From IMG/VR virus record IMGVR_UViG_3300037424_001682, positions 14,115-78,114 of that record: DNA of 64,000 nt. One strand, 5' to 3'. Origin of the DNA: a virus (taxonomy: Duplodnaviria; Caudoviricetes). The position numbers and the translations under genes were made by a program. The notes under the pieces are model-generated. The model searched no databases. It saw only the letters and a program-made list of their open reading frames with translations, and was not told the origin of the DNA. Positions 47,494 through 63,687 of the stretch are shown here, one piece after another (position 1 is the first letter of the stretch; every line of letters starts with the position of its first letter).

Positions 47494-47754
47494 TTACAAA
47501 TTATCTCGTGCTGAAATAAGTATTTTTTTATCAACACCTTTTTTTATTAATGATTCAGCAACTATTTTTGTTATTTTACCTTTTTTATAATATGGTTTAA
47601 TTAATGAAATCATTGCAGAATTATGTTTGCTTTCATTAAGATTTTTTTTCGCTTTTTCTAATTTCTCAAAAATTTCATTAATAAGTTTTCGCTCTTCTTT
47701 TTTTCTTTCAAAAAGTGCAATCATTTGTTCTTGAGTAATAAAATATTTTTTCAT
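47494..47754 (-). CDS. Small basic hypothetical protein
   Basis: 86 aa, overlaps upstream stop. Confidence 0.55.
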   Translation of the reverse strand: MKKYFITQEQMIALFERKKEERKLINEIFEKLEKAKKNLNESKHNSAMISLIKPYYKKGKITKIVAESLIKKGVDKKILISARDNL

Positions 47755-48866
47755 TATTTGTCAATATTTCCATCCATTGTTCCACTTGTATATATGGAAT
47801 TATTTTCTAATGATAATTCTTTGGTTAATCCTTCTTTTTTCATTTCGGCCAATTTTTCTAAATAACCACTATGGCGTAAACCTTTGAATACTAGATTTTC
47901 AGTTGAAAATTCACCACCATCTTCTAATCCTGCTTTTCTATATTCCTTTAATTTATCCATAAATTTATCAATAGTATTATTTTTTTCGTCGCCGTCTTCA
48001 TATTCTTCAATATCATTAATCATTTTAGCAATATGGTTTGCTTTTTGTTTAATATTGTTAATATCAATAGCAACCATTTCTTTTATTGGTTTTGTTAGCC
48101 ATTTGTCTAATCTTATTGAATAAACACCTGTCGATGTATGTGGTTCGTTTATGTTTTGAATATACATTTCAACATCGTGGCCTTTAACTTTAATTGGCAT
48201 TCTTTCACCCCATAATGATTTTTTTGTTCGAAAATAATCATCTAAAAATTCCTCATCTTGTCCTAATTGAGAAAAATCGAGTAATAAATGAATGTCTAAA
48301 TCTGAATTTTCGGTCCAGTTATAATTTGCAAGCGAACCAGTTAAAATAACATCTTTAAATTTAACATTTTCCATTTCAAGGAATTTGATAAATGCTAACG
48401 CATTTTTTATTAATGCTATCCTAACATCTGGATTCATTTTATCACCATTCCAAATTTTAGGACATAGTTCATCTTTTTTCTTTAAATTTTCAACATCAAA
48501 ATCACCAGTTTCCATTATTTCATTAATGACTTCGGTAATGGTTTTTTTCTTTAAATTTTTTCCTTCAATACGTTTAATTTCTTCAATACGCATTCCTTTT
48601 TTTTGAAAATATGGGCCAATATCTATTTTAACATCATCTGTTTGCATTCCTAAAATATTAGAAAGTTTACTAGCCCCAAGATCAAAATGAGAAACGGTAT
48701 TATTACCTTTCATACCAAAATATTCGACTAAAACATTAACTATTTCTGTTGCTTTTGATTTAATATTGGGACCATATAATTCCACTAAGTAATCGAAAAA
48801 TTCATTTACTTCTTCTTCTTTCATTACTCTTTCTTGTGGTTTATCAATAGCTACGTTGAAATTCAT
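47754..48866 (-). CDS. Pol-beta superfamily nucleotidyltransferase
   Basis: VILTGSLANYNW...SDLDIHL (GS...DxD) plus third acidic strand VEMY. Confidence 0.8.
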   Translation of the reverse strand: MNFNVAIDKPQERVMKEEEVNEFFDYLVELYGPNIKSKATEIVNVLVEYFGMKGNNTVSHFDLGASKLSNILGMQTDDVKIDIGPYFQKKGMRIEEIKRIEGKNLKKKTITEVINEIMETGDFDVENLKKKDELCPKIWNGDKMNPDVRIALIKNALAFIKFLEMENVKFKDVILTGSLANYNWTENSDLDIHLLLDFSQLGQDEEFLDDYFRTKKSLWGERMPIKVKGHDVEMYIQNINEPHTSTGVYSIRLDKWLTKPIKEMVAIDINNIKQKANHIAKMINDIEEYEDGDEKNNTIDKFMDKLKEYRKAGLEDGGEFSTENLVFKGLRHSGYLEKLAEMKKEGLTKELSLENNSIYTSGTMDGNIDK

Positions 48867-49461: not shown

Positions 49462-51555
49462 ATGGATTTAAATTGTTTAAATGGGATAATAACTGATAAT
49501 CTAGCAATACACATTGATTTAACTAACGAAAAATCGTGGGATTATAACACAGGATTTACTTCTGTTAGTTTAACTAAATGGAAAAATGCCGTATCTGACA
49601 ATCTTAATTTATATGATTTTGGATTAACAGGATATGATAACGGAAGAGTAGATAGAATGTACAGTGGATTAACGTTTACACCTCAAGATACCAACGTTAC
49701 TCTTTATCGCGTAGGTTATAATCAATGTATTTCACCATATAGTGGTGATACTATGTATGATTTGTATCCATTATCTGCCATCACTACAGAAGATGTTGGT
49801 AATTATTTTGCATTAAGTGGAGGATATTTACAAGGATTTTTTAAATTAGAAAAATACAATTTCGAACAATTTCCATCAAGATATAATTATGGCATAACTA
49901 TTGAAACAATAATAAATCTTTATTCTGATTCTTCTGGAATATTCTATCATATGGGTTTACGTGCTGAAGATAAATATAATGATTATTTTTCTGGCGAAAC
50001 AAAAAAAACAATTTCAACCCAGTATGAAACAGTAAATACTGGTGTTAGTGGTCCTAATGCAATTATTTCTGAAACAATCACTGGTTGGTCTGGTGTATCA
50101 ACAAGTGAAAATCATTATTTACATGAATATGTCGAAAAAGAAGTATTAAAAAACGCATTTGGTTCATTAGATGATGGATTGAATATGGAACAAGATTGGG
50201 TAAAAGTTAATCAATCCGCAAATACAAAAAATAACATAATTGCATTTGGTATTACTGACGATAAAAGATTATACTATCAATTAATTGATGGAAATAATTT
50301 AATAAGATTCAATACTTCATCAAATCAGTTAAATATAATAAGTGGATGGACAATAATCGCAATTTCATTTACCCCTGATGGACCAATAGCAAATTATGAT
50401 CCAACAATGCCTAATTGTTATCCAAGAAGAAAAGGTACATTATCATTTTATGTAAATGGAAGATTATTTTGGAAAGAAAAGGATTTTGATGAATTTTATT
50501 TTAGAGCAATTGGTAATGATAGAGAAAAACAATTAGGCGTACCATATAACATTTCATGGGGTGGTGGTAGTTACGGATTAAAACATTCTTGTCATTATGA
50601 TATTGATACGCATAATTTATATAGTGGTGAAACCACACAATATATTTTAGATTATTTTATCTCTAAATTATATCCTTTTAATATAAACCCACATACTGGT
50701 GCAACTTTTGGTGAAATTACATTTAGTGGTGATAGTAATACTTTTGTAGATCAAAATAACGATCCGATAACCGTATTTAGAGTAGATTATACTGGTACTA
50801 CAGCACAAACACCTTCAAATCAATATTATATCGAACATACCGAACCGTTTGAAATATTATCAAACAGAGAATATAATTTATCAGTAAAAATATATGATAC
50901 CGGTATTTTTAATAAATACGATAGTAATAATAGTGTTACTAACAATAGTATTTCATTAATTGTTTATGGTACAGAAGACATCGAAATAATTAGTGAAACA
51001 AAATATAAAAATCCTATAACACCATCCGATAATAATCTGGCAGCACAAAATGCACCATATCCAATTCTTTCACAAGAATATCAATATTATGATCCAATTA
51101 GTGGATTACTTATTAGTGGGCCAACCGGTTATCCTGCAAATGTTCCAGAAAATCAAGAACAAATAAATAGATTGGCAGCTATTGGTGTTGTAACTGGAAC
51201 AAATAAATGGAATACATTAAACTTGAAATTTAAATTAAAAGATAATAGTGCAGTACAAACAATTTTTATTGGATTATTAATTAATTCAAACGTAAATTTA
51301 AAAAACGATTTCACTTTCTTTATTAATGATTGGAAATATTCTGGTTCTGATGCATTAAATAAAGATATAAGAAAAGATGATTTATTAATTCAACAAAATT
51401 TTGATAAATCATTTAATGGTGGAATTCAAAAATTAAGAATTTATGATGTGGCTTTTAATTCACAGCAAATATTGCATAATGCAATTGTTGAATCACAAGG
51501 CAATTCTGCATATAATTTAATTATTCAAAGAGGGGGAAGAATTATATATAGATAA
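49462..51555 (+). CDS. Virion structural protein with LamG/concanavalin-like segments
   Basis: W..IAISF...L.FYVNG and FNGGIQKLRIYD.A patterns; late motif at about 49436. Confidence 0.6.
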   Translation: MDLNCLNGIITDNLAIHIDLTNEKSWDYNTGFTSVSLTKWKNAVSDNLNLYDFGLTGYDNGRVDRMYSGLTFTPQDTNVTLYRVGYNQCISPYSGDTMYDLYPLSAITTEDVGNYFALSGGYLQGFFKLEKYNFEQFPSRYNYGITIETIINLYSDSSGIFYHMGLRAEDKYNDYFSGETKKTISTQYETVNTGVSGPNAIISETITGWSGVSTSENHYLHEYVEKEVLKNAFGSLDDGLNMEQDWVKVNQSANTKNNIIAFGITDDKRLYYQLIDGNNLIRFNTSSNQLNIISGWTIIAISFTPDGPIANYDPTMPNCYPRRKGTLSFYVNGRLFWKEKDFDEFYFRAIGNDREKQLGVPYNISWGGGSYGLKHSCHYDIDTHNLYSGETTQYILDYFISKLYPFNINPHTGATFGEITFSGDSNTFVDQNNDPITVFRVDYTGTTAQTPSNQYYIEHTEPFEILSNREYNLSVKIYDTGIFNKYDSNNSVTNNSISLIVYGTEDIEIISETKYKNPITPSDNNLAAQNAPYPILSQEYQYYDPISGLLISGPTGYPANVPENQEQINRLAAIGVVTGTNKWNTLNLKFKLKDNSAVQTIFIGLLINSNVNLKNDFTFFINDWKYSGSDALNKDIRKDDLLIQQNFDKSFNGGIQKLRIYDVAFNSQQILHNAIVESQGNSAYNLIIQRGGRIIYR

Positions 51556-51590
51556 TGTTGACAATTAAATATTTTTAACATAAATTTGTA

Positions 51591-51824
51591 TTGATGAAAA
51601 AAATAAAATATATGACAATTTTAGAAGAAATTTTTTTTGGTTGGAAAAACTATATTTGGGCTAATAAAACAATTGAAGATTTAGCAAAAAAACGTATTCA
51701 AATTTGTGCCGATAAGACTATTTGTGATAAATTAAAAACAAATAAAAGATGTGCTATTTGTGGTTGTTATATGCCAGCAAAGGTAAGAAGCCCTAAATCT
51801 AAATGTCCTAGAAAATTTTGGTAA
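51591..51824 (+). CDS. Small Cys-rich (Zn-binding) protein
   Basis: C...C...C..CGCY..AKVR.....CP..FW. Confidence 0.65.
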   Translation: MMKKIKYMTILEEIFFGWKNYIWANKTIEDLAKKRIQICADKTICDKLKTNKRCAICGCYMPAKVRSPKSKCPRKFW

Positions 51825-52227
51825 TTAAAACGAAATATGAATCTTTATATGATTCTCCACTATATTTTTTATGTGGTTCAACACATATCTTAGTAAGCGG
51901 ATCTAACATTTTATAGTCACCTTCAATATCTATTGAAAGTTGCCCATCTAATAAAATAAAACATTCCATATAGTCGTTAGATCGTGCCTTTATTTTAATA
52001 CCTTTAGGAATAACCCCTAAAAATATTTTTTCTTCTGTATCATTTAAATTGGCAATCTTTTTTATTTTGATATTATCATAAACACTATCTTCCCATTTAG
52101 AAAAAAACTTAATAACAATACCGTCTTCTAATTCATGAACAACTGGAAACGTATCAATCATTAGTTCTTTTTTTTCGTAAATGATTTTTTTTGCGCTTTC
52201 AAATGCTTCTTTTAATTCATTAATCAT
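51808..52227 (-). CDS. Cupin-like protein
   Basis: ECFILLDGQL...KYSG pattern. Confidence 0.5.
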   Translation of the reverse strand: MINELKEAFESAKKIIYEKKELMIDTFPVVHELEDGIVIKFFSKWEDSVYDNIKIKKIANLNDTEEKIFLGVIPKGIKIKARSNDYMECFILLDGQLSIDIEGDYKMLDPLTKICVEPHKKYSGESYKDSYFVLITKIF

Positions 52228-52849
52228 TTTTTAATGTTCAGCGTATATATTACAATCATTTTTTGTGTTCTCTATTAATTCAACTAAATATGAAACATTT
52301 TTTACAATTTAATAGATGTTATTTTTTTAATATATTAACACATATTTTTATATAAATAGTTATAAAAAAACATAAAAATTAAATGTAACCCAATAAAATA
52401 TTTATCCGTATATATTATTAACATGAAAAATATTATGAAATTATTTGTACAAAGTTGTGATAGTAGAGAATGTAGAAAAAAACATAAAAATCAAATAAAC
52501 GATATGTGTGAAGCAGTTACAACAATTCATTATTATAATCCCAACACAAAAGAAGTTATTTGTACAGAATGTGGAAAATCATATAAATTGTCTAATTAAG
52601 CAACATTAATTTTTCTATATCCATTATCGATTGCCCATTGAGCAAGATTTTTTATTCTATTTAATATTGGTAAAATATAATCTTTACCTTTAATATTTGA
52701 ATATATATTTTTATGTGTAGTGGTATCTCTTGTTGTTTTATCTGGATAACCAAACAACATATTCTCAGCAACATTTATTTTCATAATCAAATCAACCGCA
52801 TCATAGGAATTTTCAGCACAATTAAACTATTCCATAGATCAAAATATTG

Positions 52850-52922
52850 TTGTCCCATCAGGATTTGAACCTGAAACCTTCTCCTTCAAAGGGAGTTGCA
52901 CTGCCAGTTGTGCTATAGGACA
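52850..52922 (-). tRNA. tRNA-Gln(UUG)
   Basis: Acceptor TGTCCTA/TGGGACA, loop CTTTGAA, T-arm TCAGG TTCAAAT CCTGA. Confidence 0.85.
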
Positions 52923-52951
52923 AAATATTTCTGTAATATATTAAACATTTG

Positions 52952-53023
52952 GGTGTAAGGACGGTTTCGATCCGTCTACTCCGTGTTCACGGCACGGTAT
53001 GTTACCATTACAATACAAACACC
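52952..53023 (-). tRNA. tRNA-His(GUG), atypical copy
   Basis: G-1:C73, loop CCGTGAA (C33), T-loop ATCGAAA, two acceptor mismatches. Confidence 0.6.
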
Positions 53024-53025
53024 AT

Positions 53026-53103
53026 ATGGACGCAAATTCTAACTCGAACAGAATATTTCTCAGCCATCATGCCAAGCGTGTTATCGTATTACACTAAACC
53101 ATC
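53026..53103 (-). pseudogene. Degenerate tRNA-like sequence
   Basis: D-arm-like TAGTGTAATACGATAACAC and TTCGAGT loop, anticodon arm not recognisable. Confidence 0.4.
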
Positions 53104-53189
53104 ATAATAGGAAGTATATTACACTTTTTTGATGTTTTTTCATAAATCAAAACAAATAACAACTAAATGAGCAATATATCACACTTTTT

Positions 53190-53261
53190 GGTGTAAGAGG
53201 GGAATCGAACCCCCATATACATGAGTCACAATCATGCGCTTTACCATTAAGCTACCTACAC
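53190..53261 (-). tRNA. tRNA-His(GUG)
   Basis: Acceptor GTGTAGG/CTTACAC, C73, loop TTGTGAC; position -1 is T in the DNA. Confidence 0.85.
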
Positions 53262-53378
53262 AGTCAATATGAAAAGATTCGAACTTTTGAATGAAGATTC
53301 CTTGTCTTCAAACACCCAACATAATTTTATTTTGCGTTCCTTCAAAATTACTTTTATGTTTACATATTGAGTTATTTG

Positions 53379-54233
53379 TTAAATTGAATTATAATAATCT
53401 AAGAATTTTTTAATTTCATTTTCAATATATAATTTTCCTTTTTTTGTATTAATACTTTTCCAATGTATTCTATATACATTAAAACCATTTTTTTTTAAAA
53501 TATTATCTCTTTTTTTATCGTGTTCTTTTCTATATCTATGCTGTTTACCATCAATTTCCAAATCAATATTTTTATTAGAAATATAAAAATCTAAAAAGTA
53601 TGAATATGGTTCATTAACACCCAAATCTTTTTTTAAGATAGAATAATTATGTTGATAATCAATATTATTATTTTTTAATACTTTAATGAAAATTTTTTCT
53701 GGATAACTAATAATATTTCTAGTTTTCCATCCCTGATGTCTACCTTCTTTAATAATTCTTTCCATAGAAATTTTATTCATTACTGATTTATGTTTTTTTC
53801 GACAATTTTCTGAACAACATTTTGAATTACTAAATGTACCATTTTTAATTCTATTAACATTAAAAGTTTTTTTACAGTAAACACAATTTCTTTTTTTTGT
53901 TATATATCTTGAACAATATTCTTTCTTTTTACCTGCTAATGATAAACTAATTTTCTTTTTTGTTTCATCAGAAAGTTTTCTTTTTTTATTATTAAACTTA
54001 GCAGAACAAGAAGAATTACAAAATTTTTTAATGTTAGAATTTAATTCTTTACCACATTCAAGACAATATTTAGAATCTTTTACCCAATGTGAAATATCAA
54101 CATTAAATTTAATTATCCATTGATTTAATTTTTCATAAGAATGTTTATTTGAATAACCAAAATATTTTAAATTAAATTCATTTTTAGATTTACTGTTTTT
54201 AATACAATTAATAATCTTTTCTTTAGTACTCAT
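53379..54233 (-). CDS. Homing-type endonuclease (Zn finger + DUF559/Vsr-like PD-(D/E)xK) inside tRNA cluster
   Basis: KFCNSSCSAKFNN; SYPEKIF; YFLDFYI...LEIDGKQH; D..RD..L. Confidence 0.8.
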   Translation of the reverse strand: MSTKEKIINCIKNSKSKNEFNLKYFGYSNKHSYEKLNQWIIKFNVDISHWVKDSKYCLECGKELNSNIKKFCNSSCSAKFNNKKRKLSDETKKKISLSLAGKKKEYCSRYITKKRNCVYCKKTFNVNRIKNGTFSNSKCCSENCRKKHKSVMNKISMERIIKEGRHQGWKTRNIISYPEKIFIKVLKNNNIDYQHNYSILKKDLGVNEPYSYFLDFYISNKNIDLEIDGKQHRYRKEHDKKRDNILKKNGFNVYRIHWKSINTKKGKLYIENEIKKFLDYYNSI

Positions 54234-54333
54234 ATTTTTTTTTAATATAAATACTATTAGTTGTCTAAAAACTTAGTTTTGAACTAAAATTATTTCAAAG
54301 AACATATAATAATCTTAAACTCAGATAATTACG

Positions 54334-54408
54334 TCAGGATGGTGAGATTCGAACTCACGAAAACTAGTTCCCAAAACTAGTCCATATGGCCAACTGTGGA
54401 ACATCCTG
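54334..54408 (-). tRNA. tRNA-Pro(UGG)
   Basis: C1:G72, A73, loop TTTGGGA with G37. Confidence 0.88.
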
Positions 54409-54481
54409 ATATTTTGTCCAGCGTATTTACAAGTGCACTTGTATATGAGATGCATACAGACAGTAATCTCACTTTACTTTG

Positions 54482-54553
54482 TATAGTAAGCGGGAATCGA
54501 ACCCGCTACCCGATGGGTCCAAGCCATCGTTGCTACCTTAGACTCTCTACTAT
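54482..54553 (-). tRNA. tRNA-Pro(UGG)-anticodon, atypical body
   Basis: Loop CTTGGAC in CGATGG/CCATCG stem; T-arm GCGGG TTCGATT CCCGC; acceptor ATAGTAG/TTACTAT lacks C1:G72. Confidence 0.6.
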
Positions 54554-54564
54554 ATTTTAGACAC

Positions 54565-54593
54565 AAAAAAACCCCGAACTTTCGAACGGGGTC
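54565..54593 (-). terminator. Attenuator terminator of the Pro/His/Gln tRNA cluster
   Basis: Minus strand ACCCCG-TTCGAAAGTT-CGGGGT followed by T run, 11 nt before first tRNA. Confidence 0.85.
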
Positions 54594-54624
54594 TTGATAG
54601 TTAGATTGAATGTCTCCAAAATAG

Positions 54625-54699
54625 CTAAAGCATAGAACGCCCGTTCAACAGTTGTGGCTGATGTTGGGGTTGATGTACTATGTTAACTATTTTATTCAT
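54625..54699 (-). CDS. Leader peptide MNKIVNIVHQPQHQPQLLNGRSML (24 aa)
   Basis: Translated by hand; control codons CAT CAA CCC CAA CAT CAG CCA CAA at 54675-54652; antiterminator GAACGGG at 54646-54640. Confidence 0.85.
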   Translation of the reverse strand: MNKIVNIVHQPQHQPQLLNGRSML

Positions 54700-54760
54700 T
54701 TTTAATGCTTTTTATGTTTTTATATATTATTTGCACCAATCATGTGGTACATAACAGGTG

Positions 54761-54791
54761 CAAATATAGTAATTCTATTTTTACTTGTCAA
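54761..54791 (-). promoter_or_regulatory. Early/host-sigma promoter TTGACA-N17-TATATTTG driving minus tRNA cluster
   Basis: TTGACA 54791-54786, TATATTTG 54768-54761. Confidence 0.8.
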
Positions 54792-54969
54792 GTGTTTTCA
54801 AAAAAACTTTTGACTTTTTTTTAGAGAACCTTCAACTTAACTTTTCAAGCATCCGAAAATTCTCTTTGACTATACCCGATAATCACGGACTTAACTTAAT
54901 TTTATTTTTTTAAGCAATAGCCATTATAATTATAAATACGCATCAATAAAAAAATGGTTACTATTTTAC

Positions 54970-55000
54970 TTGACTTTTTTTTAGTTTTTTTTTAACTTTA
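54970..55000 (+). promoter_or_regulatory. Divergent early-type promoter TTGACT-N17-TAACTTTA
   Basis: Same spacing as other sites, one mismatch in -7 element. Confidence 0.5.
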
Positions 55001-55186
55001 CAAAAAAAATAGAATAATGGATACAGTATGAAATAATATTGAATATTATTCCTTTTTTAAACATAAAGTTTAAATGGGTTTACTGCTAAACCCTCTATTC
55101 CCTCCATTAATGCTTCGGGAACTGCTTTTCTCATAAATACTAATAAAATAAAAAAAAAATATAATTCTGAATAAAAAAATAATATA

Positions 55187-55561
55187 ATGGATACATTAAA
55201 TGTTTTAATTTTAATATTCGCGCTTCATTTTATTGGAGATTTTATATTTCAAACAAGAGAAATGGCTGAAAATAAAAGCAAGTCAATTTATTGGTTGACT
55301 TATCATGTATTTAATTATTGTTTACCTTTTGTTCCTATAGCATTCTTAATTGGATTTGATGTTCAATATATAGAATTCTTATTTGTTTTATTTATTACTC
55401 ATTGGTTAACAGATTTTTTCACATCAAAAGCAACTTCTTATTTTTGGAAAAATAAAAAAGAAAAATTGTTTTTTTCTATGATTGGTTTTGATCAATTAAT
55501 ACATACTATTACATTAATAGAAATTTACAAATATTTCATTCATCCATTCGTATTTATATAA
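55187..55561 (+). CDS. DUF3307 membrane protein
   Basis: ALHFIGDFIFQT..MA..K; H; THWLTD; GFDQLIH. Confidence 0.85.
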   Translation: MDTLNVLILIFALHFIGDFIFQTREMAENKSKSIYWLTYHVFNYCLPFVPIAFLIGFDVQYIEFLFVLFITHWLTDFFTSKATSYFWKNKKEKLFFSMIGFDQLIHTITLIEIYKYFIHPFVFI

Positions 55562-55571
55562 AAATGTAAAA

Positions 55572-56057
55572 ATGGATATGAACACTAAAAAGTTAATCAA
55601 AATAATAAACGAAGAAATAAATAGGTTTGATTATCTTAGTAGAGATATTAAAGAGGCTTCCGACGCTAAAAAATCTGTGGTGGATTCTAAAGATTTTAAA
55701 GTAAATTTTGTGAATGATATTTTAACAAACAATACTGATGCAATTAAATTCTCAGAAGTCGTTGGTTCAAAAAAAGATAATGAAAATCCAAATGATATAT
55801 TTAATGTAGGTAATAGTGAATTATATTATGAAATACATTTGTTTTATGAATTTTTAGGTAAAGAATATGAATTAACATTATTGTTAGAAGGCAGAAATGT
55901 TAAAAGTGAACCAAAAATTGATTATAATTCTATAGATACTATATTAACCCTAGATGAAAATGGTGAAGAAGTTGATCTTGATTGGTTAAAAACCGATAAA
56001 GAAATGTATAGTAGATTCATTCAATCTTTAATTAAAAATGATTTTGACGAAGATTAA
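55572..56057 (+). CDS. Hypothetical protein
   Basis: 161 aa; GTATTTATA motif just upstream. Confidence 0.55.
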   Translation: MDMNTKKLIKIINEEINRFDYLSRDIKEASDAKKSVVDSKDFKVNFVNDILTNNTDAIKFSEVVGSKKDNENPNDIFNVGNSELYYEIHLFYEFLGKEYELTLLLEGRNVKSEPKIDYNSIDTILTLDENGEEVDLDWLKTDKEMYSRFIQSLIKNDFDED

Positions 56058-56098
56058 ATGTTTTAATTTGTCCATAATAAAAAAACTTGTGAGATTAC

Positions 56099-56129
56099 TT
56101 GCAAGTTTTTTTTGTTTTTTGTATCTTGC
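56099..56129 (+). promoter_or_regulatory. Early-type promoter TTGCAA-N17-TATCTTGC
   Basis: TTGCAA 56099-56104, TATCTTGC 56122-56129. Confidence 0.55.
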
Positions 56130-56152
56130 ATAAAAAAAATAAATTTAAACCT

Positions 56153-56455
56153 ATGAATGGAAATAATATAAATTTAATTTCTGGATCATCTATTGGTGAT
56201 GATGATATTATTGTTAATATGTATATGCTTATAATTGTGTATAAAACTGAGACATATGTTCATTATTTGGAAGAATCGGCATTAATTAAAGAATTTGAAG
56301 ATGAAAATAATGAAGAATTGTGGATAGGAATTGATTTTTACAATAAATTTCCTTTTGGCGAATTTGAAAAAAATAAAGCTATTCTATTTAATATTAAGAA
56401 TAAAAAAATTGTTGTTCCAAAATTTAAAAAATCATTTAAAGTTGAATTATATTAA
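56153..56455 (+). CDS. Hypothetical protein
   Basis: Start re-assigned to ATG 56153; listed TTG start is the promoter -35. Confidence 0.5.
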   Translation: MNGNNINLISGSSIGDDDIIVNMYMLIIVYKTETYVHYLEESALIKEFEDENNEELWIGIDFYNKFPFGEFEKNKAILFNIKNKKIVVPKFKKSFKVELY

Positions 56456-56526
56456 ATATTTGGACGTTAAACATAACCTAAAATCAGAAAATGCGTATAT
56501 ATATTCAGTAATAAGAAGACTTTATA

Positions 56527-56928
56527 ATGAAAATTGCGAAAAAATATAAATTATTTCTTGATGACATCCGTGATCCACGTGAGGCATATCCATATACAGG
56601 ATTTCAAGAATTCTTAAATGATGATTGGAAAATCGTGCGTAATTATGACCAATTTGTTGATTATGTTACAAAAAATTGGAAAACGCATAAAGCATTTCCT
56701 ACTCTAATAGCATTCGATCACGATTTATCGATAGAAGACATAATGAAAACAGATAATTTCAAAGAAAAAACTGGAATGGATTGTGCTAAATGGCTGGTTG
56801 ATTTTTGTATTGACAATAATTTAGAACTACCAAATTGGATTTCTCATTCAATGAACCCTGCTGGTAGAGATAACATAAATTTATTTTTAAAGAATTATCT
56901 TAAATTATCAAAAAAAAATGGAAACTAA
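56527..56928 (+). CDS. Cyclic-phosphate-processing receiver (Rec)-like domain protein
   Basis: KLFLDDIRDP; VRNYDQF; IAFDHDL; TGMDCAKWL; HSMNPAGRDNI. Confidence 0.8.
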   Translation: MKIAKKYKLFLDDIRDPREAYPYTGFQEFLNDDWKIVRNYDQFVDYVTKNWKTHKAFPTLIAFDHDLSIEDIMKTDNFKEKTGMDCAKWLVDFCIDNNLELPNWISHSMNPAGRDNINLFLKNYLKLSKKNGN

Positions 56929-57095
56929 ATTAAGTGAAAATGTAATTAAAGTTTTAAACGAAAACGAAAAAAAAGGGGCTAATTATGGTAATAGAATAAT
57001 TAATAACGATGGGGTTATTTTTGACTATTCAAATAATGGTTATCATGTTAGAGTTGAAAACATAAAATAATAATTAAATATAATTTCTAAATATT

Positions 57096-57410
57096 ATGTT
57101 AACGGAAGGCAAAAATAAAACAAATGTAAAACCACAATATTTAAAATGTGTTTGTTGTGGTTTTAGTGCACCTGAATATAAATTTGAAAACGGTTTTTGG
57201 TTTTTTAAAAAAAGAAAATGTCCAATTTGTGGATCGCATTTTTATGATAAAATAGAAAGAAAGAAAACTACTCCCGCTCCACAAGGTAGTAAATTGAGAA
57301 CGGACGATAAAAGATGTTTAGAATTTATTTATAATCGATTGATTAACGTTTATAATGAAAACTCAAATTATGATTATATGATAAATTTTAAAAAAATTAT
57401 TGACAAATGA
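57096..57410 (+). CDS. Small Zn-ribbon protein
   Basis: CVCCG and CPICG motifs. Confidence 0.6.
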   Translation: MLTEGKNKTNVKPQYLKCVCCGFSAPEYKFENGFWFFKKRKCPICGSHFYDKIERKKTTPAPQGSKLRTDDKRCLEFIYNRLINVYNENSNYDYMINFKKIIDK

Positions 57411-57700
57411 AAAAGACAATATCTTATAATAAAGCAGAAAAATCATTATGTGTTTTTTATAATTTTAATGATGAGCACATAAGAACATTAATTGTTATTT
57501 ACGAAAACGGCAAAGAATGCGAATTTGAAAAACGTGATCCAATGATAGATGAAGATGTTGACGGTAATGAAATATCTTGGGCAATTTGTGATGAACTAGT
57601 CGAAATGGGTTTATTAAATGAAGATGAGGAATCGTTCGATGTTTTTTATGAAATGACTAATGATGGAATAGAATTGGTTTATGAATTAATAAATAAATGA
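57407..57700 (+). CDS. Hypothetical acidic protein
   Basis: 97 aa, coupled to upstream ORF. Confidence 0.5.
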   Translation: MKKTISYNKAEKSLCVFYNFNDEHIRTLIVIYENGKECEFEKRDPMIDEDVDGNEISWAICDELVEMGLLNEDEESFDVFYEMTNDGIELVYELINK

Positions 57701-57765
57701 TTAACTTATTTAAGAAATTTTTCAGATAAAACTAAAGAAGCATTTAAGGAAAATAAGAGATAATT

Positions 57766-58146
57766 ATGAGTTGTAATAGTAGAATTTGTGGATATTCATT
57801 AAAATTAAATGAAAATTTACAAAATATGGATAAATTAAAAGAAATATCAGAAATATTGGGATATAGTTGGGATGATGATTGTGAATGGGATGAAATTATG
57901 TTTAGTGAATGGGATAAATATATAAATAAATGGAAACCACATAAAGATTATTTTGGTAATTTAGGATTTATTTATACGAAAGACTATGAATATGATGCCG
58001 ATGATGTTATATTTTATTGTGAAATAAATGAAATAGAATTAGCATTAAAAGATTATATTGATAAAACTAATATAATTCCTGATAATAATATAAAATCATT
58101 TGCTATTATTTATTATAATGGAAGCGATTGTCCTTTTAAATATTAA
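57766..58146 (+). CDS. Hypothetical protein
   Basis: 126 aa ORF. Confidence 0.55.
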   Translation: MSCNSRICGYSLKLNENLQNMDKLKEISEILGYSWDDDCEWDEIMFSEWDKYINKWKPHKDYFGNLGFIYTKDYEYDADDVIFYCEINEIELALKDYIDKTNIIPDNNIKSFAIIYYNGSDCPFKY

Positions 58147-58148
58147 CT

Positions 58149-58628
58149 ATGAAAAAAATACTAAAATTTTTAATTAAAAATAAATTAACATTAATATCTA
58201 TAGGTTTTTTTGCTATTGCTGTGTTATTATTAGCATTCGGACCTATTCTTATCGATAAGAAATTTAAAAACTCTAAAACTTATCCTAAGAAACATTATAT
58301 ATATGAAGAAAAGTTTGATCTAAGTACTGTACCTTCTGGATATGTCATTTGGCGACATGGAGTTCCAAAATATCCCATGAATTTTAATTATGCAGATTCT
58401 GCAACAAAATATGAATATTTTGATATTGGAATATTTGACAATAATAATGGAATTATATATCAAGTTAGAGTTCCATTCTACGCTATAGGTATTTTTAGAC
58501 AAGAATATGTCAATACAGATATGTATAGAAAAAAAAACTCTATTCCAAAATTCCCTAAAAAACAACCTAAAGAGGAAAAAAAAGAAGATTTAAAAGATGA
58601 TTATAAATTAATTTTATTCTATAAATAA
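58149..58628 (+). CDS. Membrane-anchored hypothetical protein
   Basis: N-terminal TM LISIGFFAIAVLLLAFG. Confidence 0.55.
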   Translation: MKKILKFLIKNKLTLISIGFFAIAVLLLAFGPILIDKKFKNSKTYPKKHYIYEEKFDLSTVPSGYVIWRHGVPKYPMNFNYADSATKYEYFDIGIFDNNNGIIYQVRVPFYAIGIFRQEYVNTDMYRKKNSIPKFPKKQPKEEKKEDLKDDYKLILFYK

Positions 58629-58645
58629 AAAAAATACGGAAAAAC

Positions 58646-58676
58646 TTGACATTTTCCGTAACCTTTTTTATCTTTG
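58646..58676 (+). promoter_or_regulatory. Early/host-sigma promoter TTGACA-N17-TATCTTTG driving plus tRNA cluster
   Basis: TTGACA 58646-58651, TATCTTTG 58669-58676; -35 flanked by 9-bp inverted repeat. Confidence 0.82.
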
Positions 58677-58728
58677 CAACGTATTTAAAGTTAAACAATA
58701 TAAAAAAAAAATAAAAAGTTCGAAAATA

Positions 58729-58848
58729 ATGAAAACATTAAACGACATAGTAGTATTAGTAGTAGATGCAGTCGCAGCCATGTTATGGTTGGAAGATGAT
58801 GCAGAACGCATGTCTTGTCGGGTAATGAATAAGATTACAATTGAATAA
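58729..58848 (+). CDS. Leader peptide MKTLNDIVVLVVDAVAAMLWLEDDAERMSCRVMNKITIE (39 aa)
   Basis: Translated by hand; 19 control codons at 58750-58806; GTCGGGT at 58817-58823 duplicates terminator 3' arm. Confidence 0.85.
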   Translation: MKTLNDIVVLVVDAVAAMLWLEDDAERMSCRVMNKITIE

Positions 58849-58870
58849 AGAGTAATCAAAAAGAAATTCG

Positions 58871-58898
58871 AAACCCGATCTAAACAGTCGGGTTTTTT
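58871..58898 (+). terminator. Attenuator terminator of the Leu/Ala/Val/Met/Glu/Asp/Trp cluster
   Basis: AAACCCGA-TCTAAACAG-TCGGGTTT followed by T run. Confidence 0.85.
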
Positions 58899-58978
58899 GT
58901 TTTATACATAATTAAAAGAAATGAAAAGAGAAAATATATATAGCGAAGGTTTATGTGGCACAGAGAGTGACTTAAAAC

Positions 58979-59066
58979 GCCTCTGTGGTGGAATTAGTAG
59001 ACGCGTCAGGCCTAAACCCTGATGATTCCGTAATGGGTCGTGCAGGTGCAACTCCTGTCAGAGGTA
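58979..59066 (+). tRNA. tRNA-Leu(UAA)
   Basis: GCCTCTG/CAGAGGT, long variable arm, loop CCTAAAC (C33), T-loop TGCAACT. Confidence 0.8.
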
Positions 59067-59122
59067 CTAAAATATATTATATCTAATATAAACGTTATTT
59101 GACATATTGTTATTATTAAAAT

Positions 59123-59198
59123 GGGGGCGCATGTTCCAAAGCCTTGGCGATGAAAACTTGCAATTTTCGTGTGGTGGATGCGATTTCCACCGTCTCCA
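59123..59198 (+). tRNA. tRNA-Ala(UGC)
   Basis: G3:U70 in GGGGGCG/CGTCTCC, A73, loop CTTGCAA, T-loop TGCGATT. Confidence 0.8.
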
Positions 59199-59231
59199 CA
59201 AAAAAGTTCTTTGACATGTTGTTATTATTAT

Positions 59232-59305
59232 ACACCCATAACTCAATTTGGTAGAGTGGCATTTTTACATGATGTTGGTTCTTGGTTCAAGTCCAAGTGG
59301 GTGGA
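59232..59305 (+). tRNA. tRNA-Val(UAC)
   Basis: Loop TTTACAT, T-arm CTTGG TTCAAGT CCAAG, A1/G72 mismatch. Confidence 0.8.
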
Positions 59306-59406
59306 CTCATACAGGGATAGTATAATGTTAGTACACACCCATCGCAAGGTGAAATAGTCGGTTCAATTGTACGAATAAAGTTTCAGATGATAAGTTTAAT
59401 ACATAT

Positions 59407-59480
59407 CGGGGTGTAGCCAAGCGGCCTAAGGCACTTCTCTCATAAGGAAGGATTCGTGGGTTCAAATCCCATTACCCCTA
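59407..59480 (+). tRNA. tRNA-Met(CAU)
   Basis: Loop CTCATAA; C1/T72 mismatch is initiator-like but anticodon stem lacks three G:C pairs; Met versus lysidine-Ile not resolvable. Confidence 0.75.
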
Positions 59481-59540
59481 CAAAATAAAATAAAAATATG
59501 TGATTTTTTCAATAATATGGAAATATTGTATATTTTAAAT

Positions 59541-59611
59541 GCTGCCGAATGCAATGGGTGAGCAACCAGCCCTTCACGTTGGTGTACAGGGTTCGAGTCC
59601 CTGCGGCAGTA
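59541..59611 (+). tRNA. tRNA-Glu(UUC)
   Basis: Stem CCAGC/GTTGG, loop CCTTCAC (C33), T-arm CAGGG TTCGAGT CCCTG. Confidence 0.75.
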
Positions 59612-59755
59612 GACAATTATAGTTAAACCACCTGCACGTGGTAATTGTTGCACAACCAATTGGTTGACCAAGAGTTTAACAATGTTCTTTAATCCCTACC
59701 TTTGGTAGGAATTCTACAAAGGTTTTAAATGTTGAGCCCATAATCAACATTTAAT

Positions 59756-59828
59756 CGTCTGCGAAGTGTAATGGTTTTGCATGGCATCCTGTCACGGTGA
59801 AGGAGGGGTTCAATTCCCACGTGGACGG
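59756..59828 (+). tRNA. tRNA-Asp(GUC)
   Basis: CGTCTGC/GTGGACG, G73, loop CTGTCAC. Confidence 0.8.
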
Positions 59829-59863
59829 CAAAAAGAAATTGTTCTTTGAAATATTGTTTTTAT

Positions 59864-59938
59864 ACACTCGTAGCTCAGTCTGGTCAGAGCGGTAGGTTCC
59901 AGCCCTATGTGTCGTGCGTTCGAATCGTACCGAGTGTG
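59864..59938 (+). tRNA. tRNA-Trp(CCA)
   Basis: ACACTCG/CGAGTGT, G73, loop TTCCAGC. Confidence 0.88.
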
Positions 59939-60012
59939 CTCTCCAAAAACATAAATAAATTTAATAAATAGATGATGTTTTTGGAAACCCATAGTATTTA
60001 TAATAAAATATT

Positions 60013-60687
60013 ATGGAAAAAAAATGTTGTAAGTGTGGTTTATCTAAAGATTTAAAATCTTTCAGTAAAAACAAAAAAAAGAAAGATGGTTATAATTCTA
60101 CTTGTAAAGAATGTCATTCTAAATATAGAAAAGAACATTATAAAATAAATAAAGAAACCGTATTAAAACAGGTTATTAAATATAAAGAAGATAATCCTGA
60201 AAAATATATAACAAAATTTGCAAATAGAAAACCAAATAAAAAAGCGGGAAGAATAATAAAAGAAAAATGTTCTAATCCAAAATGTAATGTAATTGTTTAT
60301 ATTTCACTAAATGATATAAAAAATAAAACAAAAAGATATTGTTGTGATGAATGTAAACGCTGGAACTATCATCCATTAAATAGATATTTATATGATATAA
60401 AAAGGAGAGCAAAAAAAGCTAATTATAGTTTCAATTTAGATTTCAATTTTATAAAAGATTTACTTGAGGTTAAACAAAACAATAAATGTGCTATTACTAA
60501 TGTTGATATTGAATTTGGTAATAAAACAATCTTATATGAAACACCTTCATTGGACAGAATAGATAGTAAGAAAGGATATACGAAGGATAATGTTCAATGG
60601 GTTATGTTAGGTATTAATTATATGAAAATGAAATTTAGTAATGAAGAATTAATTAAAACGTTGAATTTAATTAAAGAAAATTATTAA
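60013..60687 (+). CDS. HNH/His-Cys-type homing endonuclease inside tRNA region
   Basis: CCKC...CKECH; CAIT; TPSLDRIDSKKGYTKDNVQWV...N.MK. Confidence 0.8.
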   Translation: MEKKCCKCGLSKDLKSFSKNKKKKDGYNSTCKECHSKYRKEHYKINKETVLKQVIKYKEDNPEKYITKFANRKPNKKAGRIIKEKCSNPKCNVIVYISLNDIKNKTKRYCCDECKRWNYHPLNRYLYDIKRRAKKANYSFNLDFNFIKDLLEVKQNNKCAITNVDIEFGNKTILYETPSLDRIDSKKGYTKDNVQWVMLGINYMKMKFSNEELIKTLNLIKENY

Positions 60688-61314
60688 TTAACACCAGAAG
60701 AAGCAATTAGAGTAAAATTAAAATATTTGGTTAACGATAAATCTTTTGTTAGTGCAGTTAAACATCTAAAAGATTTAATTTACTTAGAAACGAATAAAGC
60801 AGATATTATTGAAGCTATTAACAATAGTTCTGTTTTCAGTGATAGTGACAATATAAAAGAAAAATAAAATAATATTATATCTTTTTTGTAACCTAAATTA
60901 AATAAATTACGTATATAAAGATACAAATTGAGGGAAACCTAATCACCGGTAACTCGTAAGTGTTAACGTGGCACGTAGGCGTACTTGATTGATGTTCGTT
61001 TTAAAAATGAATGCAATTCAAGAGCATACTCGGTACAAGGCGACAATTTGTATTTTAATTATTAAATTATTTGAAAAATGAGTAACGAAAAAGATTTAAA
61101 AATCAAAAAATTAAAAAAATTAGTGTCTGTTTTAAATGATGCTTTGCTTGAAGCAAATAATATACTCAAAAAAAATAGATTACCAGAAATAACAAAGGAT
61201 ATTTCTGATATATATTAAAAACAATCTGGCATATCTAATAAAAGGTTCTACCAAACTAAGTAAAAAGATATTCGGATGACATCAATTGTGAAGTGGTAGC
61301 GTAGCATTGATGTT

Positions 61315-61386
61315 TAAATAGTCGTCTAAAGGGATTAAGACACCCCCGTTAAGGGGGAAATACGGGTTCGAATCCTGTCTATTTAG
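61315..61386 (+). tRNA. tRNA-like gene with 5-nt anticodon loop (GTTAA); identity undetermined
   Basis: Perfect TAAATAG/CTATTTA acceptor, G73, D and T arms, CCCCC-GTTAA-GGGGG. Confidence 0.55.
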
Positions 61387-61533
61387 CAAAAACTATTGCG
61401 ATGTAGTTGAAATAGGAAAGTCATCGTTTCCAACATATCAAGGGGTAATAGGCCATTATCTTTTGTTGGATGAAAGAAATGTTTAAAACTGATCCGAGTA
61501 CGTATAGGTGAGGTTTAGTTTTATAGACTAGAT

Positions 61534-61590
61534 GGCGACAACACCCTCGTATAGAGAGGGAGATTGCAGGTTCGATTCCTGTCGTCGCTA
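61534..61590 (+). ncRNA. Truncated tRNA-like element (anticodon and T arms intact)
   Basis: CCCTC-GTATAGA-GAGGG, GCAGG TTCGATT CCTGT; GGCGAC can pair with GTCGCT. Confidence 0.4.
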
Positions 61591-61678
61591 CTAATATAAA
61601 CATATACCCTTTTAAGGAGAAATTAAAACGTTTTGGCAGTAAAGTCTGCAATGTTTATTTAAAGTATTTATAATATAT

Positions 61679-61768
61679 TGCGGGGTGGAGAAGTTGGTAT
61701 CTCGCCTGTCTCATAAGCACGGAGTCCTGAAATACGGTTTAACGCTGGTTCGATTCCAGCCCCCGCTA
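61679..61768 (+). tRNA. tRNA-fMet-like (CAU) with long variable region
   Basis: TGCGGGGTGGAG...TGGTATCTCG 5' half like initiator tRNA, 1/72 mismatch, loop CTCATAA, about 21-nt variable region. Confidence 0.65.
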
Positions 61769-61955
61769 CTACTGATTCCCTCTTGTCCCTGTAAATCAAA
61801 CTTGAGGGTAGAGTATATATATTATATTGAATAGCATAGACGATCAATAAAACGCTGTAATTATTAGTTACTCCAAAAAAAAAGATATATATGGAATCTT
61901 TGAGTAATTACAAAGGGTGGAGAATCGGGAATCCCTCATATTCAATATAACAATT

Positions 61956-62288
61956 GGGGCATACTGGATTTGACAGTAGGTGATTAGTAAACAGTGCAAG
62001 TACAGGGAAGTTACTCTACCTGTTAATAATTGGTAACGAACAATAAGTGAAGCAGAAATGCTAATGGCTGCTTAATCCGTAAGGATTTTGTGGTATCAGA
62101 GAGTAAGGGTACAAGGTATCCTCTCTCATTTATAATTATGAACTTCTTTTTTTGTTTTTAGAAGATTTAATAAAAACAATTTGATGCAGGAATAAAATCC
62201 AAAGCAGTTATGCTTTAAATAACTAAACTTGTGAATGACTGTTTATTTATTACACTATTGGAGATGGGTTCGATTCCCATATGCTCCA
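61956..62288 (+). ncRNA. ssrA: tmRNA
   Basis: GGGGCAT/ATGCTCC acceptor with G3:U70, GGATTTGAC 5' motif, T-arm ATGGG TTCGATT CCCAT, tag-like region ending GCT GCT TAA. Confidence 0.9.
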
Positions 62289-62352
62289 CAAGTAATTGAT
62301 TATAAGTTATTTATAATAATAATAATAACATAGAAAAAAGTAAAAGAAATGG

Positions 62353-62553
62353 GTGATGGAAACCATATTGAGAAGTGTGGCTATTGGATACGCAAGGTTG
62401 TTTCCAGAGTTACTTGATCGTTATCATAAAGATGGCGATCAAACTATAGTAAAATTGATTGCTGAAAAATCAAAAAATAAATTTGAAAAAAATATTGTAG
62501 ATATTTGTAAATTAAAAGAAGATATTGTATTTTTACTGAAAAATGGACTATAA
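62353..62553 (+). CDS. Small hypothetical protein
   Basis: 66 aa ORF; start uncertain. Confidence 0.45.
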   Translation: MMETILRSVAIGYARLFPELLDRYHKDGDQTIVKLIAEKSKNKFEKNIVDICKLKEDIVFLLKNGL

Positions 62554-62591
62554 TGATCTAAAAAATAGATAAATTAAAAATTTTTAATACA

Positions 62592-62831
62592 ATGACAACT
62601 AACGAAATAAAAAAAGAATTATATAAACAAAATCCAAAAGCTAAATTTGATTTCATCAGGCAAGGATTAGCATATTATAAAGCAAAAATAACTGTAGAGA
62701 ATGAAGGTCAAATACCTTTCAATAAATTTATAACTTTTGAAGTTCCAATTTCTGATATGGGAAGTGCTGATTTCTTTGCTGAAATAGATGCAAAGCATCT
62801 AAATAGGTGGATTGTAAACGAAGAAAAATAA
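62592..62831 (+). CDS. Hypothetical protein
   Basis: 79 aa ORF. Confidence 0.6.
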   Translation: MTTNEIKKELYKQNPKAKFDFIRQGLAYYKAKITVENEGQIPFNKFITFEVPISDMGSADFFAEIDAKHLNRWIVNEEK

Positions 62832-63046
62832 TTTTGAAATATTATTGCGATTCTCATAGACATTTAGTATGTTTGCCATACAGTATTGAAAATCTACATA
62901 AAATGGCAGTAGATTTGAATATTAAAAAGGTGTGGTTCCACAAGAACCATTATGACATTCCAAAAAGAAGAATTGAAGAAATAATGGAAAAATGTGAAAT
63001 TGTTTCAAGTAAAGAAATTGTAAATATTATAAATGGAAAAAACTGA
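62807..63046 (+). CDS. DUF4031-like protein
   Basis: HLVC...SIENLH.MA..L.IK..WFH..HYDI; true start likely a few codons downstream. Confidence 0.7.
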   Translation: MDCKRRKIILKYYCDSHRHLVCLPYSIENLHKMAVDLNIKKVWFHKNHYDIPKRRIEEIMEKCEIVSSKEIVNIINGKN

Positions 63047-63344
63047 AATTAAAAATCTTGAAGATGCATTTGCATGGTTGGATTCCTTAAATGTTCAAGA
63101 CGTTCAAGAATGGTTAAATAATGATGAAGATAAAGCAGTTGGTCTTGCCCATCATGGTTTTGGTACTATGATTCGCAATGAATTAGATTTGTGGCATAAT
63201 GGTTCGATTGTCTCATATTTTAATAATTTAGGTATATATCATGCTGATGATATGAGTGGGATTATTTTAACTTCTTTTCATAGAAATAAAAATGGTAAAG
63301 AACTAAATATTGATGAGCAAGTAAATAAATATGTTGATTATTAG
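63033..63344 (+). CDS. Hypothetical protein
   Basis: HHGFGTMIRNELDLW ... GIYHADDMSGIILTSFHR pattern, 103 aa. Confidence 0.6.
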   Translation: MEKTEIKNLEDAFAWLDSLNVQDVQEWLNNDEDKAVGLAHHGFGTMIRNELDLWHNGSIVSYFNNLGIYHADDMSGIILTSFHRNKNGKELNIDEQVNKYVDY

Positions 63345-63393
63345 GAAAAAGTTGATCCTAAAGTAAATAAGGAAAAATATAAATAAAAATATC

Positions 63394-63687
63394 ATGAGTT
63401 GGTTTTTATCGGGTGATAATTATTGGGATGGGGGTAAAAAAAAATTGGAAGGTGTTCATTTAAGAATTAAACATAACACCAATAATGATGTTGTAAATAA
63501 AATATGTGAAAAATTTAATACAACAATATTTAATATTGGATATGTTAAATTAAATAAATATATCGAAAGCATTGATAGTTTTGAAATAAAATTATCGATT
63601 AATAAAAATAAAGAATTTTTGATTATTCCTTATAGTCCTGATTGGGTTTGTGAAGGATATTTAACAGAGATTTTAATTTTAAATTAG
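63394..63687 (+). CDS. Hypothetical protein
   Basis: 97 aa ORF. Confidence 0.5.
   Translation: MSWFLSGDNYWDGGKKKLEGVHLRIKHNTNNDVVNKICEKFNTTIFNIGYVKLNKYIESIDSFEIKLSINKNKEFLIIPYSPDWVCEGYLTEILILN

Follow-up and report, generated by a model that had tools for sequence, protein, structure and literature searches.

Two tRNA operons with short leaders and terminators

We analysed a 64,000-nucleotide (nt) stretch of viral DNA (Duplodnaviria; Caudoviricetes), positions 14,115 to 78,114 of IMG/VR record IMGVR_UViG_3300037424_001682 (hereafter the window), in which two arrays of transfer RNA (tRNA) genes are each preceded by a promoter, a short open reading frame (ORF) and an intrinsic terminator. An earlier reading of the letters alone (the sequence-only reading) had proposed that the first array, here called operon 1, is controlled by leader-peptide attenuation. 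Its features are listed in the order of transcription, with positions given in window coordinates.

54761-54791, minus strand: promoter, with TTGACA at 54791-54786, a spacer of 17 nt and TATATT at 54768-54763
54625-54699, minus strand: leader ORF 1, with ATG at 54699, 24 codons and TAG at 54627-54625
54652-54675, minus strand: control codons HQPQHQPQ, codons 9-16 of leader 1 (CAT CAA CCC CAA CAT CAG CCA CAA)
54635-54647, minus strand: segment 2, the putative antiterminator strand, which contains GAACGGG and is the best complement of the terminator 5' arm
54565-54593, minus strand: intrinsic terminator, a hairpin at 54593-54570 (-12.5 kcal/mol) with CCCGTTC in its 5' arm, followed by a T run
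54481-54553, minus strand: tRNA-Pro(UGG), first copy (ARAGORN at default settings)
54333-54408, minus strand: tRNA-Pro(UGG), second copy (ARAGORN at default settings and Rfam)
53379-54233, minus strand: DUF559/NUMOD3 endonuclease-like ORF of 284 amino acids (aa), between the Pro and His tRNAs
53190-53261, minus strand: tRNA-His(GUG), first copy (ARAGORN at default settings and Rfam)
52951-53022, minus strand: tRNA-His(GUG), second copy (Rfam, 40.9 bits; ARAGORN at a relaxed threshold)
52849-52922, minus strand: tRNA-Gln(UUG), the last gene of the array (ARAGORN at default settings and Rfam)

The elements on which the sequence-only reading was built are all present. The promoter that it placed at 54791-54761 on the minus strand is confirmed by the sequence and by a promoter scan, in which it scores 11/12 and is joint top among 116 promoter-like sites between 50000 and 64000; read as TATATTTG (54768-54761), its downstream box matches the -7 box TAnnTTTG of the Bacteroidetes sigmaA. 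An A-rich untranslated stretch of about 55 nt separates the promoter from the 24-aa leader, whose eight consecutive His, Gln and Pro codons were found as described. This run is the sole H/Q/P codon run longer than five in the six frames of the window, and it lies beyond what shuffling produces: 200 shuffled versions of the window gave no run above six codons, a length that was reached twice. His, Gln and Pro together account for 7.9% of the residues in the long ORFs of the phage. The GC hairpin and T run reported at 54593-54565 hold up in folding, as does the complementarity of GAACGGG (54646-54640) to CCCGTTC in the terminator 5' arm (54590-54584). The first tRNA starts 12 nt past the T run, and the gene upstream of the operon is divergently oriented. 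ARAGORN and Rfam agree with the stated composition of the array, i.e., two Pro(UGG), two His(GUG) and one Gln(UUG), and the GUG, UUG and UGG anticodons can read all eight control codons.

A second copy of the design, operon 2, lies on the plus strand of the window.

58646-58676, plus strand: promoter, with TTGACA, a spacer of 17 nt and TATCTT(TG)
58729-58848, plus strand: leader ORF 2, 39 codons plus TAA
58816-58824, plus strand: putative antiterminator strand TGTCGGGTA, inside leader ORF 2
58871-58900, plus strand: intrinsic terminator, a hairpin at 58871-58895 (-10.5 kcal/mol), then a T run
58979-59939, plus strand: tRNA array of Leu(UAA), Ala(UGC)-like, Val(UAC), Met(CAU), Glu(UUC), Asp(GUC) and Trp(CCA), plus two spacers

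The control run of leader 2 spans codons 8-26, and these 19 codons specify only Val, Leu, Asp, Ala, Met, Trp and Glu, the same seven amino acids as the seven identified tRNA identities of the array. Five of these tRNAs (Leu(UAA), Val(UAC), Met, Glu(UUC) and Trp(CCA)) were called by ARAGORN at default settings, while tRNA-Asp(GUC) was called at a relaxed threshold and scored 27.9 bits with Rfam. The tRNA-Ala(UGC)-like gene (59123-59198) has an odd D arm and aligns with ARAGORN-called tRNA-Ala genes of a 635- and a 642-kilobase (kb) phage, with an invariant anticodon loop and with anticodon-stem changes that, judged by eye, are apparently compensating. Leaders also help annotation: leader 2 predicted Ala and Asp tRNAs that default tRNA finders had missed. 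Among the Val codons of leader 2, GTA is used in 5/6, versus 30% among the Val codons of phage genes, a preference that fits the tRNA-Val(UAC) of the array. At position 58672, contigs from two other sediment samples carry A instead of C, which changes the -7 box from TATCTTTG to TATATTTG; TAnnTTTG is preserved, and the box of operon 2 then equals that of operon 1. The leader had no listed differences in contigs from four DNA metagenomes (same strain, low depth).

Both arrays also include stretches of less certain nature. In operon 1, the stretch 53263-53334 (minus strand), just upstream of tRNA-His, has a canonical T arm, AAAAGTTCGAATCTTTT, and folds into no cloverleaf; ARAGORN needs a low threshold to report it, as Pro(agg), and the stretch probably represents a tRNA gene that has decayed. 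In operon 2, the spacers 59306-59406 and 59613-59756 are without a tRNA call. The latter folds well (z -3.3), with a 7-bp stem (GTTAAAC/GTTTAAC) around small hairpins. These spacers may be degenerate or unusual tRNAs, or processing elements.

Recurrence of the layout and match of leaders to arrays in other phages

Relatives were reached by two routes: Prevotella phage Lak-A1 and a 735-kb phage (LR756501) through the endonuclease gene of operon 1, and phages LR745206 (635 kb) and LR756502 (642 kb) through the odd tRNA-Ala of operon 2. The layout recurs in 11 further operons of these four phages, giving a total of 13 operons in five phage genomes. All multi-tRNA arrays examined in the four relatives start with a promoter-like block, a short ORF and a strong hairpin with a T run, and the T-run hairpin of an intrinsic terminator was found in 13/13 operons. 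Single tRNAs and CUA/UUA suppressor-type tRNAs are without a leader-terminator unit in the genomes examined.

The amino acids of the leaders change with the tRNAs that follow. The leader of Lak-A1 operon a is rich in Gly, Met, His, Pro, Cys and Arg, and the tRNAs behind it are those for His, Pro, Arg, Arg, Gly, Cys and Met. The 735-kb phage has five such pairs: a Thr/Pro/Ala/Val/Arg/Gly leader before Arg, Thr, Val, Ala, Gly and Pro tRNAs; the leader MIQEQMQQIQ before Glu, Met, Gln and Ile tRNAs; YNDYCIND before Ile, Cys, Asp, Asn, Tyr and His tRNAs; a Leu-rich leader before five tRNA-Leu; and KHSKHFSSSSKWF before Trp, His, Phe, Lys and Ser tRNAs. The 635- and 642-kb phages have Tyr/Glu leaders ahead of tRNAs for Glu and Tyr, and Ile/Gly/Ala leaders ahead of tRNAs for Ile, Gly and Ala. 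The sequence-only reading had suggested a comparison of leader codons with tRNA content across related phages, and we carried this out as a permutation test on the 13 distinct operons, scoring for each leader the fraction of residues that fall within the amino-acid set of its array and re-pairing leaders with arrays at random. The true pairing gives a sum of 5.89, compared with 3.10 ± 0.38 for random pairings, and none of 200,000 permutations reached it (p < 5e-6). Leader codons therefore do track tRNA content, and the result is unchanged without the 642-kb phage, which is a relative of the 635-kb phage.

The first 7-8 codons of the leaders (54699-54676 and 58729-58752 in the window) also share a common N-terminal pattern: Met is mostly followed by Lys or Asn, Asn-Ile occupies residues 6-7 in 7/13 leaders, residue 7 is Ile in 9/13, and the control run begins at codon 8-9 in most of the 13. 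Such a pattern suggests that the cassettes arose from one ancestor or obey a rule of spacing. The middle of the leader differs completely among operons, following the downstream tRNA set. In the 735-kb phage, all five tRNA operons have a common block upstream of the leader (GAAAAAA, (T/C)GAC, a T run and ATATATA), and three of them have a nearly identical terminator hairpin, CCCAATCAG...TGATTGGG, a pattern of conservation which suggests that the cassette was duplicated and that the control codons alone were rewritten. Lak A, B and C do not differ in the leader, in the terminator stems or in the CTTGAG core that pairs with the arm; their hairpin loop varies.

Other routes to relatives gave no further examples. 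A degenerate HQPQHQPQ pattern occurs in at least 119 stretches of IMG/VR, and no tRNAs were found downstream among the loci fetched from the matches listed. Searches with the neighbouring 697-aa and DUF3307 proteins found no syntenic loci, a tblastn search of phages with the 1520-aa ORF returned zero matches, and no clear leader plus terminator was seen in two cultured phages, Flavobacterium phage immuto (3-4 tRNAs) and Bacteroides phage DAC17.

Competing RNA pairings

For each leader, the best duplex with the terminator 5' arm was sought between the start codon and the hairpin and compared with shuffles. In operon 1, this duplex is formed by 54647-54635 at -13.0 kcal/mol, versus -5.2 ± 2.1 kcal/mol in shuffles (z -3.7). 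The best complement falls within the ORF in 13/13 leaders and, in 12/13, at 0.68-0.91 of the ORF length, just past the control run; the pairing exceeds shuffles at p < 0.05 in eight of the 13. Three leaders of the 735-kb phage close with CTGATTGG or TTGATTGGG, which nearly copies the terminator 3' arm.

In the minimum-energy fold of operon 1 without a ribosome, AACCCC (54671-54666) pairs with GGGCGTT of segment 2, and the terminator forms. This pairing between the control codons and segment 2 is enclosed by a protector helix that joins 54694-54666 with 54642-54617. The effect of a translating ribosome was modelled with a 30-nt footprint on a transcript ending just before the terminator 3' arm, as a proxy for co-transcriptional folding, and it is worth noting that this model partly restates the location of the antiterminator. 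With the A site on codons 1-14 of leader 1, the 5' arm is paired upstream at a probability of 0.86-0.98; from codon 15 to the stop, the value is about 0.1, and it is 0.14 without a ribosome. A drop in this pairing at or near the end of the control run is seen in 13/13 leaders, coming 2-6 codons early in four. The modelled pairings of operon 1 are those of the classical 1:2 / 2:3 / 3:4 logic, in which a stall would lead to read-through and smooth translation to termination. The mutually exclusive antiterminator that the sequence-only reading had proposed is thus borne out for operon 1, both as the best complement of the 5' arm and in the ribosome-position model.

Proposed mechanism

These observations are best explained by ribosome-mediated attenuation of the trp/his type in which the output is the tRNAs themselves, so that the switch would act as feedback on tRNA supply; from the sequence and the folding models, we give this reading a probability of roughly 0.8. 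Transcription would begin near 54761, and a ribosome would translate the 24-codon leader. When the His, Gln and Pro codons are read fast, the ribosome would pass the control run and cover segment 2 (54647-54635), the hairpin at 54593-54570 would form, and RNA polymerase would halt at the T run ahead of the tRNAs. When charged tRNA is scarce, a codon would be read slowly and the ribosome would stall on the control run and so pull the control codons away from segment 2; the freed segment 2 would then pair with the terminator 5' arm, no terminator would form, and the Pro, Pro, His, His and Gln tRNAs would be transcribed. The new tRNAs would relieve the stall, closing a negative feedback loop that is specific to the supply of this set. 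Operon 2 would follow the same scheme for seven other amino acids, and a shortage of any one tRNA would open transcription of the whole block. In other words, a tRNA set is probably produced only while the corresponding codons are being decoded slowly, as the leader-array match and the pairing models suggest.

Candidate triggers include a mismatch between phage codon usage and the host tRNA pool, as well as the loss of host tRNAs in infection or by defence nucleases. The phage favours A/T-ending codons (CAA 93%, GAA 92%, TTA 66%), and its arrays carry U34 tRNAs for them. The attenuator interpretation of the sequence-only reading is supported by recurrence, by the leader-array match and by the placement of the antiterminator. 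From these, together with the layout and the competing pairings, we infer that the leaders are translated, that read-through in vivo depends on this translation, and which way the switch turns in vivo and what its physiological trigger would be.

Several observations weigh against this reading or limit it. The antiterminator pairing is no better than in shuffles in 5/13 leaders, and several leaders are without a protector helix. In Lak-A1 operon a and in operons a and e of the 735-kb phage, the 5' arm has an upstream partner even in the absence of a ribosome; in several relatives, where the protector helix is weak or missing, the pairing probability is 0.64-0.72. When the full-length leader is folded to equilibrium with the ribosome footprint, the terminator prevails almost wherever the ribosome sits in 10/13 leaders, and the states separate in just three of the 13. 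This calculation was therefore given no weight as support, the truncated-transcript model being the more informative one, and the switch must decide kinetically, like other attenuators. The antiterminator strand of operon 2 ends 22 nt short of the stop codon; a ribosome paused there would leave the strand uncovered, and under the folding model either timing or a small hairpin at 58832-58858 must contribute. The leaders are without a Shine-Dalgarno sequence, an absence that is expected in Bacteroidota. Finally, an attenuator is unable to tell a missing tRNA from an uncharged one.

This last point leads to the alternative that survives best, in which the RNA switch is the same and its real input is amino-acid supply or charging, i.e., host starvation, and not the abundance of tRNAs; the arrays would then turn on in starving cells. 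What a stall reveals is the level of charged tRNA alone, as is established for the trp and his attenuators; amino-acid starvation would trip the proposed switch too, and the sequence holds nothing that separates the two inputs. However, extra tRNA cannot cure an amino-acid shortage, so the loop would stay unclosed, and the codons of leader 2 follow the anticodons of its array, as in the GTA bias of its Val codons, instead of the usual phage usage. The U34 anticodons carried by the arrays for phage-preferred A-ending codons further suggest sensing of tRNA species, and we regard starvation as an improbable primary input.

Slightly less probable still is another role for the same elements, whereby the hairpin would serve processing or stability, translation of the leader would shield the transcript from Rho or RNases, or the logic would be inverted into positive feedback. 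Some features would suit such a role, in that tRNA precursors require 5' processing anyway and that, in operon 2 and Lak-A1 operon a, a ribosome near the ORF end again leaves the antiterminator strand free. Yet a T run directly follows every hairpin, as in intrinsic terminators, and the model of operon 1 gives the terminator both without a ribosome and past the control run, with the antiterminator only during the run. That the small ORFs are chance frames or functional micropeptides and the hairpins ordinary terminators or spacers is very improbable: the common N-terminal pattern, such as Ile7, could reflect a peptide function, but the middles of the leaders differ wholly by operon and track the tRNA set, the H/Q/P run is far above chance, and with a divergent upstream gene the hairpin of operon 1 has nothing else to terminate.

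Comparison with known systems

The attenuation that we propose shares its main features with the enterobacterial attenuators (trpL, hisL, leuL, pheL, thrL and ilvL): both have a short ORF close to the promoter with a run of regulatory codons, both have an intrinsic terminator ahead of the first regulated gene, and in both the antiterminator strand directly follows the control codons and competes for the terminator 5' arm. In its predicted fold, operon 1 also shows a protector pairing of control codons with segment 2, as those attenuators do, and the multi-amino-acid leaders of the phages resemble thrL (Thr/Ile) and ilvL of ilvGMEDA (Ile/Leu/Val). By contrast with the enterobacterial systems, the regulated genes here are tRNAs and not biosynthetic enzymes, such that the sensed product would be the made product; the phage leaders cover as many as about seven amino acids, or about fourteen in the case of Lak-A1 operon b; and the system is carried by phages and is repeated several times per genome with a shared promoter. 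The Rfam leader families (His_leader, Trp_leader, Leu_leader, Thr_leader, Phe_leader and others) were not matched by cmscan at 50000-64000 (E <= 1) or at 59060-59860 (E <= 10), and both stretches gave only tRNA, tmRNA (transfer-messenger RNA) and chance-level matches.

In the E. coli pheST attenuator, the pheM leader controls phenylalanyl-tRNA synthetase, a component of the machinery that decodes the leader's own codons. There, however, the output is a synthetase protein, a single amino acid is involved, and the genome is a cellular one. T-box riboswitches likewise use a terminator/antiterminator switch that reports tRNA status and acts on translation-related targets, but they bind uncharged tRNA directly and without translation, whereas the phage system has an ORF that is predicted to be translated. 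No T-box or other Rfam cis-regulatory family was found in 50000-64000 at E <= 1.

Phage tRNAs have been proposed to replace host tRNAs hit by defence nucleases (PMC12409363). The operons described here share with accounts of phage tRNA arrays the clustering of tRNAs with anticodons for the A/T-ending codons of the phage; however, such arrays have been taken as simply expressed, whereas here each array has its own predicted sensor. Leader-peptide attenuation has been inferred for amino-acid operons in Flavobacterium, a member of the likely host phylum (PMC9723704). Full-text literature searches returned no description of leader-peptide attenuation of tRNA genes, and the texts of the papers first describing the Lak and the 634-735-kb phages contain neither "leader" nor "attenuat"; the statement in the sequence-only reading that it knew of no precedent for phage tRNA arrays agrees with these searches. 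The attenuation mechanism is of a known kind; what would be new is its proposed application to tRNA arrays, through codon-matched leaders for several amino acids that recur along a genome.

Genome context and likely host

The source contig is 78 kb long with 27.7% G+C, and the datasets listed as containing 52500-62400 are DNA metagenomes from sediment and soil, with no RNA set among them. It encodes a portal protein (T4 Gp20-like, 34798-40539) with four intein-domain stretches and a LAGLIDADG domain, a T4-type large terminase (40610-44092) with one intein, and a UvrD-like helicase (13358-16852) with inteins and LAGLIDADG. The terminase is closest (~28%) to those of Microcystis, Flavobacterium and Synechococcus phages. 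We considered and rejected a Lak identity for the window, as both terminase and portal are T4-like and are most similar, at about 28%, to their counterparts in cyanobacterial and Flavobacterium phages; the virus is thus a divergent T4-like phage.

The host is likely a member of Bacteroidota. TAnnTTTG is the -7 box of the primary sigma factor of Bacteroidetes (PMC7366714, PMC9723704) and is carried by both tRNA promoters of the window; Bacteroidetes are also the predicted hosts of the Lak and 634-735-kb phages (PMC7162821), and the attenuation in Flavobacterium noted above points the same way. Under the standard code, ORFs of at least 80 aa cover 86% of the contig. Stop-codon recoding was rejected, since the longest ORFs are unchanged with TAG or TGA as sense codons, and the TAG of leader 1 is therefore taken as a stop.

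Inserted ORFs and other RNA elements near the arrays

The 284-aa endonuclease-like ORF of operon 1 has 72% nucleotide identity to a Lak-A1 gene that lies between tRNA-His and tRNA-Pro of a Lak-A1 tRNA operon. By its DUF559/NUMOD3 similarity it is probably a mobile homing endonuclease, and mobile endonucleases seem to home into the tRNA arrays of distant phages. An ORF inserted in operon 2 (60013-60687, plus strand) has Cys-rich zinc-finger-like repeats and is without a Pfam match. About 4 kb beyond operon 1, a 370-aa ORF (47754-48866, minus strand) has a weak nucleotidyltransferase match (PF01909, below the Pfam cut-off) and, by this similarity, might be an enzyme of the CCA-adding or tRNA-repair type.

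Further RNA elements follow operon 2. A tRNA with a UUA anticodon (61315-61387) is reported as "Stop" by ARAGORN, and Lak-A1 carries one as well. Read-through of the leader stops would take ribosomes across the terminator of operon 2, or within 8 nt of that of operon 1, and from this spacing it is possible that such a tRNA gives a late override by reading the leader stops. The element 61533-61591 is tRNA-sized, with an acceptor stem, one central hairpin, a canonical T arm (GGTTCGATTCC) and no D arm; it was called neither by Rfam nor by ARAGORN at default settings. In general, ARAGORN at very low thresholds or with introns gave noise only. A tmRNA at 61956-62291 (Rfam, 69 bits), with the short tag EAEMLMAA, comes after a long tRNA-Met (61679-61769), and this third RNA group is without an upstream leader/terminator unit.

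Implications for phage tRNA arrays

The system sits unremarked in published genomes, namely those of the Lak megaphages and the 735-kb phage. The odds appear to us about even for the broader reading that many phages, at least those of Bacteroidota, gate their tRNA arrays by codon-matched leaders that respond to decoding speed, apply OR logic across the amino acids of a block, tune themselves and act as sentinels, with an override by a UUA-tRNA being possible. If the proposed mechanism is true, textbook attenuation would extend to RNA products that close their own feedback loop. It would also offer a testable explanation for the grouping of tRNAs into blocks in huge phages, and it would link tRNA arrays to codon-usage mismatch and to host defences that target tRNAs. 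Phage tRNA genes are usually seen as passively expressed cargo; if the reading holds, the arrays would instead be a self-tuning tRNA supply and a sentinel for the loss of host tRNAs, e.g., to anticodon nucleases, and the phage would gauge the decoding capacity of its host in real time and make only the tRNAs that are in short supply.

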